Assembly: GCA_029838195.1 (NCBI GenBank)
Contig: JALGVJ010000019.1
Span: forward strand, 1 to 64,000
Source: Promethearchaeota archaeon
Lineage (GTDB): Archaea; Asgardarchaeota; Lokiarchaeia; Sigyniarchaeales; SOKP01
Length of the DNA stretch: 64,000 nt
Direction: 5' to 3'
Below are positions 17,288 through 22,464 of the stretch, in pieces; positions within the stretch are counted from its first letter, which is position 1; every line of letters starts with the position of its first letter. The translations under genes were made by a program, and so were the position numbers. A model generated the notes under the pieces. The model did not search any database. It was not told where the DNA came from and was given only the letters and a program-made list of their open reading frames with translations.

Positions 17288-17419
17288 GCGGCTCTTCGCA
17301 AGGTATTTTTAGTAAGGAGCAACTTGAGATAGGACTTTAAATATAATGAGATTGGTTTTTAATAAGATTAAAATATCTCCTTGATCTAACCTTTAAAAAC
17401 AAGGAAAAAAAGAATATTG

Positions 17420-17683
17420 ATGGAAGATTTCATCCATGTTTTAGGAATTCTTTTTGCCATTTTAGCTGATTTTATCTCTAATTTGAGATTCGTATGGCAA
17501 AAAATGGTTGTAAATGAGATTCCGAAGAATTCCGAAGAATGAGCTTCGTTTTTTAGAAATACGGTAAAAAAGCCTCCATGGTTAATGGAATTAGTATCCG
17601 AAATTGTCTTTGGAATTATTTTCGTGTTAGCCACTAAATCGTTAATAGGCAGTCTATTTATGAATATCTCATGGAAAACATAA
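17420..17683 (+). pseudogene. Relic of a DMT/NIPA-like membrane protein (5' part)
   Basis: MEDFIHVLGILFAILADFISNLRFVWQKMVVNEIP..., 10-nt tandem duplication TCCGAAGAAT at 17521-17540, then FFRNTVKKPPWLMELV. Confidence 0.5.
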
Positions 17684-17966
17684 ATCCTACTACTACTACT
17701 ACTATCATGGACAGATTAAATAAGTTAACTTACGTTTTGATGCAGCTTGTTAACGCAGAGGATACTGGCGACATAATGGAAATTTATATGCTTTCCAAGG
17801 TTCACGAGTTTTACAATATTTGAGAATTGATATTTTTATGACCAATCATGTTTAAAATAATTTTGTTTAATAATTTGGTTAATCAAATAATAAAATGGTT
17901 AATGTAATATTTAAATGGGCACAAGATTTAAATACAAGTTTTTATATCTGTTATTAGGTATAAGAA

Positions 17967-18077
17967 ATGAACGCTTCCAATATCGGAATTCGAAAACATC
18001 AAAAAGCTAATTATCCAAATTTAGGATTACAATTTGTGTCATTTCAACAAATTGAGTCCATGAATGAAAAAATTTAG
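17967..18077 (+). CDS. Possible 36-aa leader ORF upstream of the B12 mutase gene
   Basis: ATG 17967 to TAG 18077 (MNASNIGIRKHQKANYPNLGLQFVSFQQIESMNEKI); TTTAAATA box ~35 nt upstream and AGGT before the ATG. Confidence 0.3.
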   Translation: MNASNIGIRKHQKANYPNLGLQFVSFQQIESMNEKI

Positions 18078-19851
18078 AATCAACTATCTTAATTTTCCTT
18101 ACATAAGGGTGATAAATATTACAAGGAGTAATTCAAAAAGGAATACGGAACCAAAAATAGTAGCTGCCTGTATCGGGCAATGTGTCCATGTGGCTGGCGC
18201 TCATAATTTCATGAGTATTGCAACCCAGTTAGGTTATAATTGCATTTTTATAGGACCCGCCACGCCTATTCCTTCAATTATAAAAGTAATCGAAAGGGTA
18301 AGGCCCGAAATTGTTGGATTAAGCTATCGTTTAACTCCCCATACGGTAAAACCCTTATTAGTAGAATTTGAGAGGGAATACATGAAACTTAAAGTTAAGC
18401 CAAAAAAATTATTTTTTGCCGGAACACCAAAAGTAGTGGAAGAGGCTAAAGCTCACGAAATTTTTGATCATTATTTCATTGGAGGAGAGTCAAAATATCA
18501 AATACTTGCGGCGTTAAAAGGCGAATTTGCAGATCAACAAGTCCAACAAGAAATCCCAATGGAGTTAATTTCGCGAATAGAGTGGAAAAAGCCTTATCCC
18601 GTGATACGAGCCCATTTTGGTTTGCCCAGTCTGGAAAATACAATTAAAGGGATTGAAGAAATAGCTGAAGCCAGTGCATTAGACATAATTTCGATAGCTC
18701 CTGATCAAAATACCCAACAAAATTATTTTCATCCAGAAGAGTGCATTCAATCGCTATCTGGGGCGGGAGGGGTTCCCTTAAAAAGTGAGGCAGATTTTTT
18801 CAAATTACATGAAGCCCGATTAAGAGGAAATTTTCCTTTATTAAGGATATATGCAGGAACAAGAGATTTCATTAAATTAGCAGAATTATATCAGCGGACG
18901 ATAAAAAATGCCTGGGCTGCAATTCCCATTTTTTGGTTTAATCAAATGGATGGCAGAGGTCCCTTGAGTTTGAAGGATTCCATTAAAGAACATTTAAAAG
19001 CGATTGAATGGCATGCTAAAAATAATATTCCCGTAGAAATAAATGATCCTCATCATTGGGGTCTTCGAGATGCACCTGATGCGATTGAAGTTGCTGATAT
19101 GTTTTTGTGTGGTATAATAGCAAAAACTTTAGGAGTCCGGTATTTTATTGCGCAATACATGTTTAATACACCCCCTTCAAATTCTTTAGAAATGGATTTA
19201 GCTAAAAATCTTGCGAAAGATGAACTCCTACACGAATTAGTTGATGCGAATTTCAAAATCATTCGTCAGACGCGGACGGGTTTAGCAAGTTTTCCTTTAA
19301 ATTTAGAGAAAGCAAAAGGGCAATTAGCAGCGGCAACATTAATCCAATTAACAATGAGACCAGATATTTTACATGTAGTGAGTTATTCTGAAGCAAGTCA
19401 TGCTGCTCGGCCTGAGGAAATAATAGAGAGTTGTAATATTGTGGATCAAGTGATAGATCAAGTATATTCAAGTAAGTTAAATGTTATTGATGATCGCGTG
19501 ACTCAACGAAAAGAAGATTTAATTAAGCAAGCCAGATGGATCATTGATTTAATTCCGTCCTTAACAAAATCTACGGATGAGATACAAAATCCTTATATAA
19601 ATCTTGAAGCTCTCACGCGATTAGTAAAACACGGGATTTTTGATGCGCCTCACTTAAAAAACAATAAATATGCGCAAGGAAAAATAAAAACCAAAATTAT
19701 TGATGGGGCATGTATATCATGGGACGATCAGCTTCAGAAACCAATCGATGAGATAGAACGAATATTGCAAATCCTTTCGAAAATTTCTCATGAATTTCCT
19801 CAATTAAAACAGGTTCGAAAAAAAATTGCAAAGATGGAGTTGATGGAATAA
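18064..19851 (+). CDS. Cobalamin-dependent mutase-like protein: B12-binding domain fused to a glutamate-mutase-E-like TIM barrel
   Basis: CVHVAG (DxHxxG variant), VGLSYRL and FAG B12 motifs; the barrel region follows GlmE segments in order (see findings). Start likely GTG 18109 or ATT 18118. Confidence 0.75.
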   Translation: MKKFRINYLNFPYIRVINITRSNSKRNTEPKIVAACIGQCVHVAGAHNFMSIATQLGYNCIFIGPATPIPSIIKVIERVRPEIVGLSYRLTPHTVKPLLVEFEREYMKLKVKPKKLFFAGTPKVVEEAKAHEIFDHYFIGGESKYQILAALKGEFADQQVQQEIPMELISRIEWKKPYPVIRAHFGLPSLENTIKGIEEIAEASALDIISIAPDQNTQQNYFHPEECIQSLSGAGGVPLKSEADFFKLHEARLRGNFPLLRIYAGTRDFIKLAELYQRTIKNAWAAIPIFWFNQMDGRGPLSLKDSIKEHLKAIEWHAKNNIPVEINDPHHWGLRDAPDAIEVADMFLCGIIAKTLGVRYFIAQYMFNTPPSNSLEMDLAKNLAKDELLHELVDANFKIIRQTRTGLASFPLNLEKAKGQLAAATLIQLTMRPDILHVVSYSEASHAARPEEIIESCNIVDQVIDQVYSSKLNVIDDRVTQRKEDLIKQARWIIDLIPSLTKSTDEIQNPYINLEALTRLVKHGIFDAPHLKNNKYAQGKIKTKIIDGACISWDDQLQKPIDEIERILQILSKISHEFPQLKQVRKKIAKMELME

Positions 19852-21122
19852 TGAAATTTTGTGTAATTGGAGCAGGATCCGGGGGACGAGCATTTGCAGC
19901 TTATCTTTCTTCGAAAGGATTTCAAGTTTCACTTTATAATCGTTCTTATTCAAGAATTGCTGATATAAAAAAAGCGGGGGGAATTACTGCTTTTGGTTGC
20001 TTGAAAGGTTTTTATCCAATTAGATTGGTCACACAAAATCTACAATTAGCAGTAAGCGATGCTAATATTATTTTAATAGTAGTCCCTGCTTCTGCTCATG
20101 AAAGTATTGCTAAAAAACTCGCACCATTTCTTAAAAACGGTCAAATCATATTGTTAAATCCTGGCAGAACATTTGGAGCTATAGAAGTTAAGAAAATAAT
20201 AGGTGAGAGAAGAAAGGATCTCTCTATTTTTGTAGGAGAAACTCAAACGCTACTCTTTACATGTAGAGCTTTAAAGAATAATGGAGTAAATATTTTAAAA
20301 ATAAAAAATACCGTGAATTTCTCAACATTTCCCGAGAATCATGTTCATGTCGTCCATAATATATTAGCTTATATTTTTCCTCAATTGATTCCCGTGGATA
20401 ATTATCTTGAAGTTACTTTTAATAATATTGGCATGCTACTTCATCCTGCTATCACATTGTTTAATGCTGGAATGATGGATATAGGCAAACCTTTTAAATT
20501 CTATAATGAAGGGGCAAGCATTAAAATTTGTCAAGTTCTTGAAACAGTAGAAGCTGAAATTAATAAAATTTTAAGTGAATTAGGTTTAAAACAATTTCGA
20601 TTTACCAAATGGGCAGAATCTTCTTATGGAATAAAGAGCGAATCGATATACGATGCCATCCAAAAAATTGAAGCATACAAGCCAGTAAATGCCCCTAATC
20701 AATTAATTACACGATACCTCACGGAAGATGTGCCGACTGGGCTTGTTCCCATTTCTTCTCTAGCAGAATTTCTCGATATCGAAATTCCCACTATTGAATC
20801 AATTATTTTATTAACAAGTTTGTTATGTGGTATTGCTTTTAAAAAAACGGGGAGGACACTCCAAAAATTGGGACTTCACGATTATTTAATTAATCACATA
20901 AATGTCATGCGAATAAGGGGACTTGAAAAAGAAGGATTATTTACGGTTGAAAAGATTTTATCTAATCCTAATGAGTTCAAAATTTGTATTAATTGCGAAC
21001 AACTTAATTATCACGAAAATAATGCTTGTTGGTTATGCCATGAAAAAAATTTTAGACAACCAAGGGAAAATGATTTTGTTAAAATATATAATAATGACGA
21101 AAAATCATTAATTCGAGCGTAA
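19851..21122 (+). CDS. NAD/NADP octopine/nopaline (opine) dehydrogenase family protein with C-terminal Zn-ribbon extension
   Basis: VIGAGSGG, NPGRTFGA, ETQTL, NIGMLLHP, RYLTEDVPTGL. Start overlaps the upstream stop (TAATG). Confidence 0.9.
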   Translation: MKFCVIGAGSGGRAFAAYLSSKGFQVSLYNRSYSRIADIKKAGGITAFGCLKGFYPIRLVTQNLQLAVSDANIILIVVPASAHESIAKKLAPFLKNGQIILLNPGRTFGAIEVKKIIGERRKDLSIFVGETQTLLFTCRALKNNGVNILKIKNTVNFSTFPENHVHVVHNILAYIFPQLIPVDNYLEVTFNNIGMLLHPAITLFNAGMMDIGKPFKFYNEGASIKICQVLETVEAEINKILSELGLKQFRFTKWAESSYGIKSESIYDAIQKIEAYKPVNAPNQLITRYLTEDVPTGLVPISSLAEFLDIEIPTIESIILLTSLLCGIAFKKTGRTLQKLGLHDYLINHINVMRIRGLEKEGLFTVEKILSNPNEFKICINCEQLNYHENNACWLCHEKNFRQPRENDFVKIYNNDEKSLIRA

Positions 21123-21276
21123 TTTTTTTTTCTCTTTCTAGCTTTTCATTTTGATTGAAAAATCTATATTGAATAGTTTTTAAATCCTATTTGGATTATT
21201 TATCAAATTAAATTTATTAGTAAGAACCATTAAATAAAAATAATGAGAAAAATAAGATGTTTAAAAGCTTTTTTAT

Positions 21277-22464
21277 CTAATAACGTTTATTTAATTTTTC
21301 CACGTGTTTTTTTCTTCGATTAACATATTTTTGGATATAAGAAAGCGCATCATTTACCGCATAGTCATATGCAGAAATATTTTTCTCTAATGCACCTTGG
21401 ATGATCTCGTTTACTTTTTCGTCTATTTTTCCTCTAACGAAATCAAATATTTCTTCAGGAGATTTTGCTATTTTATTTACGCCTATAGCCAAGATTTCTC
21501 CCGCATTAGCCACGAAATCGGGAAAGGCTATGATTTCTTTCTCATGAAGGATTTTCGTGATACCATTTTCATACGGAATATTCGCTGCTGGAATTATTGC
21601 TTTCACATGAATGTTATCCACATTGTTTCTATTAATGACATCAGGGCGAGCTCCTGGAATGATGAAATCAATGGGATGGTCTTTTGAAAGTTCGAATAAT
21701 TTTTCTTTTTCTACCTTGATTAGATTTTTACTTTCATAATGATTAATGAGATCATCCCCGTATTGTTGTTTCAATTTCATCAACTTGTCTAAATCCAGCC
21801 CCTTTTCGTTAAAAATGGCTCCTTTAATGGTTGAAACGCCATTTAACTGATATCCCAATTCTTTCAAACTCATAGCTATTCCAATGCCTACTTTCCCAAA
21901 TCCTTCTAATAGAATTTTTGGTTTAGAATTCTCTTCAAATTTACCCTTTGATTTTAAATACTTAAAAATCGCTTCAATGCAGTATGAAACGCCATATCCC
22001 GTGAATAATTCTTCTACGGGAAAACCGTTTTTTTTCATGCCAAGAGGTTTCGGTGCCAATCCAGGTTTACCAATGATATTAAAAATTCGCTCAATATCTC
22101 GGTCATAGGTTCCCATATCAGGGCCGCATACGTATTTATCTTCTAAAATGTTTGTTTTTATTGCTTCTGCAAAACCGGTAATTAATAAATCTTTTTTTTC
22201 CGAAAAAGGATCTCCTTTAATTCCTGCTTTAGCCCCTCCTACTTTAAGTCGATAGCTGGCAAATTTATAAGACATTGCTCGTGCCAATCGTACGATTTCT
22301 TCAAGAGAAACGTCTGGTTCCATCCGAATACCGCCTGCGGGCCATCCAATTGATGTATTATCGAACACTAAGTATCCTTCTAATCCAATACTAGAGTTTC
22401 TTACAATCACTATCTTCTCAGGTCCTAATTCATCAAAAAAATCAGTGGGTAAAGCATTACTCAT
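21277..22464 (-). CDS. Glu/Leu/Phe/Val dehydrogenase family protein
   Basis: GGIRM, LARAMSYK, GGAKAG, GPDMGT, TGYGV, EGFGKVG, PDFVANAG. Confidence 0.9.
   Translation of the reverse strand: MSNALPTDFFDELGPEKIVIVRNSSIGLEGYLVFDNTSIGWPAGGIRMEPDVSLEEIVRLARAMSYKFASYRLKVGGAKAGIKGDPFSEKKDLLITGFAEAIKTNILEDKYVCGPDMGTYDRDIERIFNIIGKPGLAPKPLGMKKNGFPVEELFTGYGVSYCIEAIFKYLKSKGKFEENSKPKILLEGFGKVGIGIAMSLKELGYQLNGVSTIKGAIFNEKGLDLDKLMKLKQQYGDDLINHYESKNLIKVEKEKLFELSKDHPIDFIIPGARPDVINRNNVDNIHVKAIIPAANIPYENGITKILHEKEIIAFPDFVANAGEILAIGVNKIAKSPEEIFDFVRGKIDEKVNEIIQGALEKNISAYDYAVNDALSYIQKYVNRRKKHVEKLNKRY

Follow-up and report, generated by a model that had tools for sequence, protein, structure and literature searches.

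In a 64,000-nucleotide stretch of DNA from a Promethearchaeota archaeon (GCA_029838195.1, contig JALGVJ010000019.1, positions 1-64,000; this whole stretch is called the window, and coordinates are window positions unless another contig or locus is named), we identified two overlapping genes that encode a single-chain cobalamin (B12) enzyme, similar in fold to the glutamate mutase E subunit (GlmE), and an opine dehydrogenase. Our favoured reading, which we hold with moderate confidence, is that the first protein acts as a radical isomerase dependent on adenosylcobalamin (AdoCbl), from the glutamate-mutase lineage but with an altered substrate pocket, and that it works with the dehydrogenase on a metabolite of the N-carboxyalkyl-amino-acid type. 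The pair is laid out as follows, in a window of about 32% G+C:

18064-19851, plus strand: gene of the single-chain B12 enzyme, 595 amino acids from the first ATG (open reading frame and translation)
19849-19853, plus strand: TAATG stop/start overlap (TAA at 19849-19851, ATG at 19851-19853, with the A at 19851 shared)
19851-21122, plus strand: gene of the opine dehydrogenase, 423 amino acids (PF02317)
21123-21131, plus strand: run of nine T directly 3' of the dehydrogenase stop codon

Homologues of the B12 enzyme are 575-582 amino acids long and their N-termini line up, in the alignment, with a GTG at 18109; this codon may be the real start, giving a protein of 580 amino acids, and residues 1-27 of the longer form are disordered in the predicted model. 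An overlapping or abutting junction likewise occurs in three contigs (L001-L003) retrieved by looking up the exact protein and in most of the 80 loci described below. Oligo-T tracts are archaeal transcription terminators, and the nine-T run is a likely terminator that would delimit the pair as a two-gene unit. The overlap with an opine dehydrogenase gene and an N-terminal B12-binding domain with the motifs CVHVAG and SYRL had both been reported in a preliminary description, made by a model from the letters of the DNA, and both are borne out here.

The B12 enzyme consists of a cobalamin-binding domain followed by a barrel, with these landmarks:

18145-18531, plus strand: cobalamin-binding Rossmann domain, residues about 28-156 (Pfam PF02310, profile match and structure comparison)
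18181-18198, plus strand: His-loop CVHVAG, residues 40-45 (sequence)
18322-18333, plus strand: SYRL, residues 87-90 (sequence)
18550-19773, plus strand: GlmE-like TIM barrel and C-terminal subdomain, residues about 163-570 (predicted model and structure comparison)
18607-18621, plus strand: conserved barrel strand-end motif RAHFG
18703-18717, plus strand: conserved barrel strand-end motif DQNTQ
18838-18867, plus strand: conserved barrel strand-end motif LLRIYAGTRD
18946-18960, plus strand: conserved barrel strand-end motif MDGRG
19030-19047, plus strand: conserved barrel strand-end motif PVEIND
19381-19395, plus strand: conserved barrel strand-end motif SYSEA

The first domain is matched by the Pfam B12-binding family PF02310 at residues 31-94 (28.6 bits, E 1.3e-6, slightly below the cut-off of 32.1), and a profile search matched it to the corrinoid protein 4JGI (E 3.7e-6); C40, H42 and G45 of the His-loop are at least 90% conserved in the family alignment, and Ser87 of SYRL is retained. 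The barrel is matched by PF06368 (Met_asp_mut_E) at residues 338-544 with 27.1 bits against a cut-off of 26.6, over profile positions 184-380 only, and the genome-wide profile search scored the same match at 21.4 bits, under that cut-off. When the PDB was searched by sequence and by profile, the matches were B12 domains only and never GlmE, and a comparison of folds was therefore needed to make the link. An AlphaFold2 model of the enzyme, built with 23 diverse relatives as input (pLDDT 87.7, pTM 0.82), places a Rossmann domain at residues of about 28-156, followed at about 163-570 by a barrel of eight strands whose C-terminal part is helical. The top Foldseek match of the predicted barrel was GlmE (1cb7_B, E 5.9e-15), and the next entries were all AdoCbl isomerases; VIA-align ranked the structures in the same way, with GlmE 1cb7_B at Z 30.0 (root-mean-square deviation 3.1 Å, 375 residues, model 163-570 vs. 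chain 43-440), followed by lysine 5,6-aminomutase (Z 27.8), ornithine 4,5-aminomutase (Z 25.4) and methylmalonyl-CoA mutase (Z 20.6). ThiC (about Z 17) and GcpE and dihydropteroate synthase (about Z 15-16), the last a barrel of the methyl-transfer type, lay well under the AdoCbl isomerases, and model residues 26-156 aligned with corrinoid and B12 domains at Z 15. These comparisons support, at the level of a predicted structure, an S-type B12 domain fused ahead of a GlmE-like barrel in one chain, the architecture that the preliminary description had proposed by eye; the methyltransferase or radical-SAM fold that would have spoken against it was not what the searches returned.

Several observations support AdoCbl radical chemistry as the class of the enzyme. 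A Pfam scan with E up to 0.1 returned no PF02607 cap, no PF02574 and no PF00809 in the protein, and the lack of a cap domain before the Rossmann domain and of homocysteine or pterin barrels counts for AdoCbl. Glu443, in SYSEA, pairs by hhalign with Glu330 in the HEA motif of GlmE, which we take to be the residue that holds the ribose of 5'-deoxyadenosine, and it is invariant in every subfamily compared. Three family members (P0144, 41% identical, E 4e-92; P0148; and P0151) are fused to PF13941, MutL, a chaperone that reactivates glutamate mutase (PMC4682846). Finally, a CobA-type ATP:cob(I)alamin adenosyltransferase (188 bits) is encoded on the same contig at 66316-66831 on the minus strand, about 2.3 kb past the end of the window, and its presence points to an organism able to make AdoCbl; no PduO-type adenosyltransferase was found in the genome, which is 96.6% complete. 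Together, the missing cap, the MutL fusions, Glu443 and the adenosyltransferase agree with the earlier suggestion that the cofactor is AdoCbl rather than methylcobalamin.

Most homologues are nevertheless named 'methionine synthase' at NCBI, and we rejected that name for the present protein, which scores 17.6 bits against TIGR02082 (cut-off 1010.85) and has neither the cap nor the methyl-transfer barrels. That the enzyme is a methionine synthase or another corrinoid methyltransferase would fit the best sequence matches of its N-terminal domain, which are MetH-type and corrinoid-protein B12 domains, and a genome rich in corrinoid methyltransferase proteins; the barrel, however, is far closer to AdoCbl isomerases than to methyl-transfer barrels, and the MutL fusions within the family also speak against methyl transfer, so we regard this explanation as very improbable. 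The genome has 18 B12-binding-domain matches, many of them within small corrinoid proteins.

To compare the active site with that of GlmE, we used the annotated E. coli O157:H7 record, with numbering tied to the Clostridium cochlearium structure (6H9E), in which the landmarks are Arg66 in QPRAG, Arg100 in AYTRQ, Arg149 in ARHGTPD, Glu171 in NEGGG, and Lys326 and Glu330 in KTPHEA. We take the three arginines to form the claw that binds both carboxylates of glutamate and Glu171 to lie at the substrate amino group. Three kinds of hhalign run (against a single GlmE, against a 14-sequence GlmE profile, and with the N-terminal barrel half; E 0.015, probability about 3%) gave one register, pairing Arg100 with Gln218, Arg149 with Tyr263, Glu171 with Ala285 (beside Trp284), Tyr181 with Gly297 and Glu330 with Glu443, and this register fits both the Pfam match range and the ranges aligned by structure; for the N-terminal barrel half, global alignment with GlmE failed. 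Gly297 lies in an invariant Asp296-Gly297-Arg298. The by-eye matches of the preliminary description fared well for the most part: DQNTQ with DAYTR, LLRIYAGTRD with LQARHGTPD, GVRYFIAQY with GVKSITVGY, SFPLNLEKAKG with GFPEDESKAF and SYSEA with SPHEA all fall in the order and register of hhalign, while RAHFG with QPRAG was not reproduced by it, though this pairing fits the structural offset better. Similarly, the proposed replacement of the arginine claw and catalytic Glu holds, on weak alignments, for Arg100, Arg149 and Glu171, and is ambiguous for Arg66 and His184.

His184, Gln218, Tyr263, Arg182, Asp296, Arg298, Glu325, Arg335, Gln364, Lys381, Arg404 and His437 are invariant across four subfamilies, and the invariant residues lie mostly at or just past the C-terminal ends of the barrel strands of the model. 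These comparisons support the description of a 'rewired active site' in which the residues that bind glutamate appear to be replaced; since the positions of Arg100, Arg149 and Glu171 are changed, free glutamate is an unlikely substrate. In line with this, neither methylaspartase (PF07476) nor MutL was found in the genome. As judged from sequence, the active site of the family is unlike that of every characterised relative. The same conservation bears on whether the protein might bind cobalamin without radical catalysis, for example as a sensor or B12 carrier, or to regulate the dehydrogenase. Such a role could be argued from the unusual Asp-to-Cys change in the His-loop and from two aligned relatives (P0154 and P0170) that have no His-loop; yet about 20 residues at the C-terminal strand ends are invariant across distant subfamilies, which is the pattern of an active site, the Asgard copies are 64-76% identical, and fusion to a reactivase makes sense only for a radical enzyme that is damaged by turnover. 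We therefore give a non-catalytic role very little credence.

The second gene encodes a dehydrogenase with a clear family assignment, matched by Pfam PF02317 (Octopine_DH; 126.5 bits, E 1.1e-36) and over its full length by N-(1-D-carboxyethyl)-L-norvaline dehydrogenase (1BG6, E 8e-71). Its landmarks are:

19869-19886, plus strand: GAGSGG dinucleotide loop (sequence)
within 20436-20450, plus strand: catalytic His198 (alignment)
within 20709-20732, plus strand: Arg288 and Asp293 (alignment)
20985-21038, plus strand: CxxC...CWxC C-terminal extension, zinc-ribbon-like, of about 50 residues (alignment)

The GAGSGG loop, His198, Arg288 and Asp293 are invariant among 18 dehydrogenase partners of the B12 enzyme, and the His/Arg/Asp triad presumably has the role that it has in octopine dehydrogenase. 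The CxxC...CWxC tail is confined to a subgroup of 419-438 amino acids (mostly 423), and most partners are 367-375 amino acids long. A predicted complex of B12 enzyme residues 28-592 with dehydrogenase residues 1-350 scored 0.00 against a mark of 0.32, a result that is uninformative either way. The genome encodes a second opine dehydrogenase, on contig 35 (L007, 7041-8129), which is 29% identical and has an amidohydrolase, an alpha/beta hydrolase and an amino-acid permease as neighbours; we rejected it as a further copy of the system because of this identity and a neighbourhood free of B12 genes, and it may belong to a separate opine-type pathway.

The pairing of the two genes is conserved across archaea and bacteria and widespread in anaerobes. 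We counted it in 80 loci from species-representative genomes, comprising 22 Asgard loci (among them the cultured Promethearchaeum syntrophicum MK-D1, L064), many from Chloroflexota, Thermoanaerobacter, Caldanaerobacter and other Bacillota, and one from Poribacteria. An opine dehydrogenase gene lies beside the B12 gene on the same strand in 78 of the 80 (78 of the 79 informative loci), directly downstream in 69, directly upstream in 6 and one or two genes off in 3; the two exceptions are a locus cut at a contig end and a Poribacteria contig of 3.5 kb. The preliminary description had made co-occurrence elsewhere a test of its proposal, and adjacency in 78 of 80 loci answers it in the affirmative. 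L001-L003 share a 4-nucleotide gene overlap while their flanks are dissimilar, and in one metagenome-assembled genome (MAG) of the Anaerolineaceae (L061, 5392-8154) the B12 enzyme and the dehydrogenase form a single reading frame of 920 amino acids, the sole instance, explicable either as a natural fusion or as an error of assembly.

Homologues of the B12 enzyme are numerous: a word-indexed search returned 4721 significant ones, the best being Asgard copies at 64-76% identity, an exhaustive search of 50%-identity representatives returned 688, and relatives are encoded in at least 595 stretches of species-representative genomes. For both proteins the closest homologues come from MAGs of Promethearchaeota, Thor-, Hod-, Hermod- and Odinarchaeota, which by itself marks the DNA as Asgard. 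Sampling of the phylum gave the B12 gene in 78 of 201 genomes, and in 38 of the 85 that are of high quality; because of this patchy presence it is an accessory and not a core gene there. Some copies in the Asgard relatives G005 and G031 have one or two in-frame TGA codons, and those of genus g36 are about 505-520 amino acids long, with a TAA within the region that matches the C-terminal part; candidate explanations are shorter forms, errors or recoding.

Pairing with an imine-forming enzyme, fused to it in one case, is unparalleled among carbon-skeleton mutases, and with the lysine 5,6- and ornithine 4,5-aminomutases as the next-best structures after GlmE it raises the idea of an aminomutase that does without pyridoxal 5'-phosphate (PLP), in which an imine made by the dehydrogenase would replace the PLP aldimine and the B12 radical would shift the nitrogen by 1,2-migration. 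A Pfam scan of the B12 enzyme gave no match to aminomutase families, however, and its B12 domain has no conserved Lys that could anchor PLP; moreover, a free imine is short-lived and would require channelling between the proteins, and the scheme as a whole is without precedent. We consider this scheme improbable.

The genes that recur around the pair, found by clustering the open reading frames of the loci, offer some guidance on its direction. A glutamine-dependent asparagine synthase (AsnB) is near the pair in 20 of 84 loci (3 of them Asgard), mostly directly after it, a DUF5698/DUF2179 membrane protein in 15 loci and a D-Ala-D-Ala-ligase-like ATP-grasp enzyme in 4. Transporters of the major facilitator superfamily (MFS) recur, as do CitMHS transporters, one of which, with a TrkA_C domain, sits between the two genes. 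One bacterial form has the B12 enzyme fused to an ATP-grasp domain of the glutathione-synthetase/RimK type, followed by a C26 amidotransferase. Four Asgard loci have the pair followed by a C26 amidotransferase, a gamma-glutamylamine cyclotransferase and a GCS2 carboxylate-amine ligase, with an MFS transporter in two, and a fifth has the same C26 block without GCS2. With three ways of turning a carboxylate into an amide near the pair, together with exporters, the neighbourhoods suggest a biosynthetic route to an amidated acidic compound.

Some Chloroflexota loci, which come from related genomes, also carry Na+/H+ exchangers with TrkA_C, Na/Ca exchangers, CitMHS-TrkA_C and mannosylglycerate-hydrolase-like genes, and no gene of this kind is in the window; a link to salt or potassium is thus a tentative lead at most. 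Two further subfamilies have settings of their own. The MutL-fused relatives (L090, 3908-7588; L091, 4255-7935) are 1226-amino-acid chains of B12 domain, GlmE-like barrel and MutL that lie beside oligopeptide ATP-binding-cassette transporter ATPases and an AAT (C45) acyltransferase, without an opine dehydrogenase, and are probably sister enzymes with a different substrate. A divergent Bacteroidota-type subfamily (L092, 4719-7821), with a canonical DxHxxG loop and the opine dehydrogenase upstream, lies inside a polysaccharide gene cluster with a sugar nucleotidyltransferase, a DegT aminotransferase, glycosyltransferases and a flippase, a context that hints at opine-type decoration of glycans.

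The opposite direction would be a catabolic pair in an amino-acid fermenter, where an N-(carboxyalkyl)amino acid or unusual amino acid is taken up, rearranged by the B12 enzyme, and oxidatively cleaved or deaminated by the dehydrogenase to an amino acid and a 2-oxo acid. It is a matter of general knowledge that the well-known enzymes of the GlmE and aminomutase type all serve fermentations, and opine dehydrogenases are reversible; in addition, most Asgard pairs stand alone, with MFS transporters and AsnC/Lrp-type regulators nearby, and the pair in the window has a divergent MFS gene upstream and no attached anabolic gene. On the other hand, the ATP-consuming amidating enzymes that lie beside the pair (AsnB, ATP-grasp, and GCS2 with an amidotransferase) suit synthesis better, and downstream catabolic genes such as lyases and thiolases are not recurrent among the clustered neighbours. 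We think this catabolic scheme rather unlikely, and a biosynthetic role somewhat more likely than a catabolic one.

Returning to the AdoCbl isomerase that we favour, the products of the two-gene operon, a radical isomerase and an NAD(P)-dependent opine dehydrogenase, would carry out a linked pair of metabolic steps. Cobalt would be ligated by His42 of the CxHxxG loop. The 5'-deoxyadenosyl group would sit in the barrel, where Glu443 would correspond to Glu330, the ribose-binding residue of GlmE, and the radical would drive a 1,2-rearrangement of a substrate other than free glutamate. Immediately before or after this rearrangement, the dehydrogenase would act on an N-(carboxyalkyl)amino acid, whose C-N bond it would form or cleave; adjacency suggests an opine as the substrate of the mutase. 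We lean towards biosynthesis, in which an opine-type compound would be made from an acidic amino acid or 2-oxo acid and isomerised, and in many relatives the product would be amidated (by AsnB, or by a ligase with a glutamine amidotransferase) and exported. Going further, and only tentatively, the pair might represent a new reaction class whose substrate is a secondary amine of the opine type or an imine supplied by the dehydrogenase, and Asgard archaea and many anaerobic bacteria might thus contain novel rearranged, often amidated N-carboxyalkyl amino acids, possibly as solutes or metal binders.

A number of points weigh against this reading. The link to GlmE at the level of sequence is marginal, in the Pfam score as in the hhalign probability, and the mapping of residues combines low-confidence alignments with the aligned ranges of a predicted model. 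The equivalent of Arg66 is ambiguous, being His184 by eye, which fits the structural offset, and placed elsewhere by hhalign. Two residues ahead of replaced positions stand a conserved Arg182 and an Arg/Lys261, and a carboxylate site may therefore persist in a shifted form; these residues could bind a carboxylate one rung deeper in a bigger pocket. AdoCbl isomerases have a base-off/His-on B12 domain with the motifs DxHxxG, SxL and GG; the Asp of DxHxxG is Cys here (CVHVAG), with His42 and Gly45 kept; we know of no characterised AdoCbl enzyme with Cys at this position, and the divergent Bacteroidota-type subfamily keeps the canonical Asp loop (DPHT.G). No PF13941 MutL reactivase was found in the genome. 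Finally, many of the recurrent neighbours come from related Chloroflexota or Asgard lineages and hence are non-independent, none of the amidation or export genes seen beside the pair elsewhere adjoins it in the window, and the AsnB copies of the genome are unlinked to the pair.

The neighbours of the pair in the window are MFS transporters, a glycoside hydrolase family 2 (GH2) gene, phosphate uptake genes, a tRNA-modification gene and one further dehydrogenase:

21277-22464, minus strand: Glu/Leu/Phe/Val dehydrogenase gene, convergent on the pair, 395 amino acids (Pfam E 1.1e-35)

The preliminary description was correct that this gene converges on the pair; no homologue of it occurs within 8 kb of the pair in the 80 other loci, a role for it with the pair is thus unsupported, and we rejected it as a third member. 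Its best NCBIfam equivalog match reaches 112 bits against a cut-off of 620, and all equivalog cut-offs lie far above its scores. Upstream, the divergent MFS gene is separated from the B12 gene by an unusually long AT-rich spacer of 776 bp (17288-18063), which contains short open reading frames only and gave no match in an Rfam search.

The pair itself is already in print, and its novelty had been overstated in the preliminary description. Zhang, Rodionov, Gelfand and Gladyshev predicted in 2009 a novel B12-dependent family in 11 bacteria, with a distant N-terminal B12 domain, 'always adjacent to' pfam02317 and with asparagine synthase and D-Ala-D-Ala-ligase-like genes nearby (PMC2667541), and in the same year Hore_09740/Hore_09750 of Halothermothrix orenii were described as a putative operon, also present in other thermophilic anaerobes, with its 'role still unknown' (PMC2626281). 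Literature searches, including for the years after 2009, found no functional characterisation of the pair. One transcriptome paper reports an octopine dehydrogenase, Teth514_2108, as upregulated in an ethanol-adapted Thermoanaerobacter strain, a candidate for the paired gene. With the present copy, a family flagged in 2009 thus gains a new archaeal member, and we contribute the GlmE-like fold, the arguments for AdoCbl and the comparison of active sites.

The family is large and strongly conserved, occurs in both archaea and bacteria, and is publicly misnamed 'methionine synthase'. To our knowledge, the reactions established for AdoCbl isomerases number only about a dozen, and additions have been rare in recent decades. 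Identification of the substrate would give a new B12 reaction, correct thousands of annotations, and reveal a metabolite that Asgard archaea, P. syntrophicum MK-D1 among them, make or use. With cultivable carriers such as Thermoanaerobacter and Caldanaerobacter, the question can be tested now.

Compared with the known systems, the features of the 2009 family (the B12 domain, the adjacency to pfam02317 and the asparagine synthase and D-Ala-D-Ala-ligase-like neighbours) are all reproduced here, and the taxa in common are Thermoanaerobacter and Caldanaerobacter (Clostridia) and Chloroflexota. The scope of the earlier papers was 11 bacteria and a few genera of thermophiles, and they recognised neither the GlmE-like barrel nor the AdoCbl class (PMC2667541, PMC2626281); unlike those bacterial sets, the copy described here is archaeal and belongs to a highly conserved Asgard clade. 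Glutamate mutase (GlmS/GlmE, EC 5.4.99.1, Clostridium cochlearium; 1CB7, 1CCW, 1I9C, 6H9E) likewise combines a B12 Rossmann domain with a TIM barrel, and among the strand-end motifs that GlmE and the present enzyme have in common are GT.D behind strand 3 and [HS]EA, which contains the ribose-binding Glu. Whereas glutamate mutase has two subunits, encoded together with mutL and methylaspartase, the present enzyme is one chain with the B12 domain first, at about 15% identity; it has Cys for the Asp of DxHxxG, and Gln218, Tyr263 and Ala285/Trp284 appear in place of Arg100, Arg149 and Glu171. It also differs in its obligate opine dehydrogenase partner and in a genome without MutL and methylaspartase. 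Lysine 5,6- and ornithine 4,5-aminomutases (1XRS, 8T0V, 3KOW), the second-best structures at Z 25-28, use AdoCbl and have the same barrel-plus-Rossmann build, but they need PLP on a Lys of the Rossmann domain, and the B12 enzyme has no conserved Lys in residues 28-156. The pathways of these aminomutases also include an amino-acid dehydrogenase, next to which they act. Among carbon-skeleton mutases related to GlmE, the one other characterised enzyme that we know of is 2-methyleneglutarate mutase of Eubacterium barkeri, a single chain with its own B12 domain, which is C-terminal; it is not known to have a dehydrogenase partner. Finally, the dehydrogenase shares the Rossmann loop and the His/Arg/Asp triad with the Arthrobacter sp. 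1C enzyme (1BG6), from which it differs in its CxxC...CWxC extension and in having a B12 enzyme as partner.

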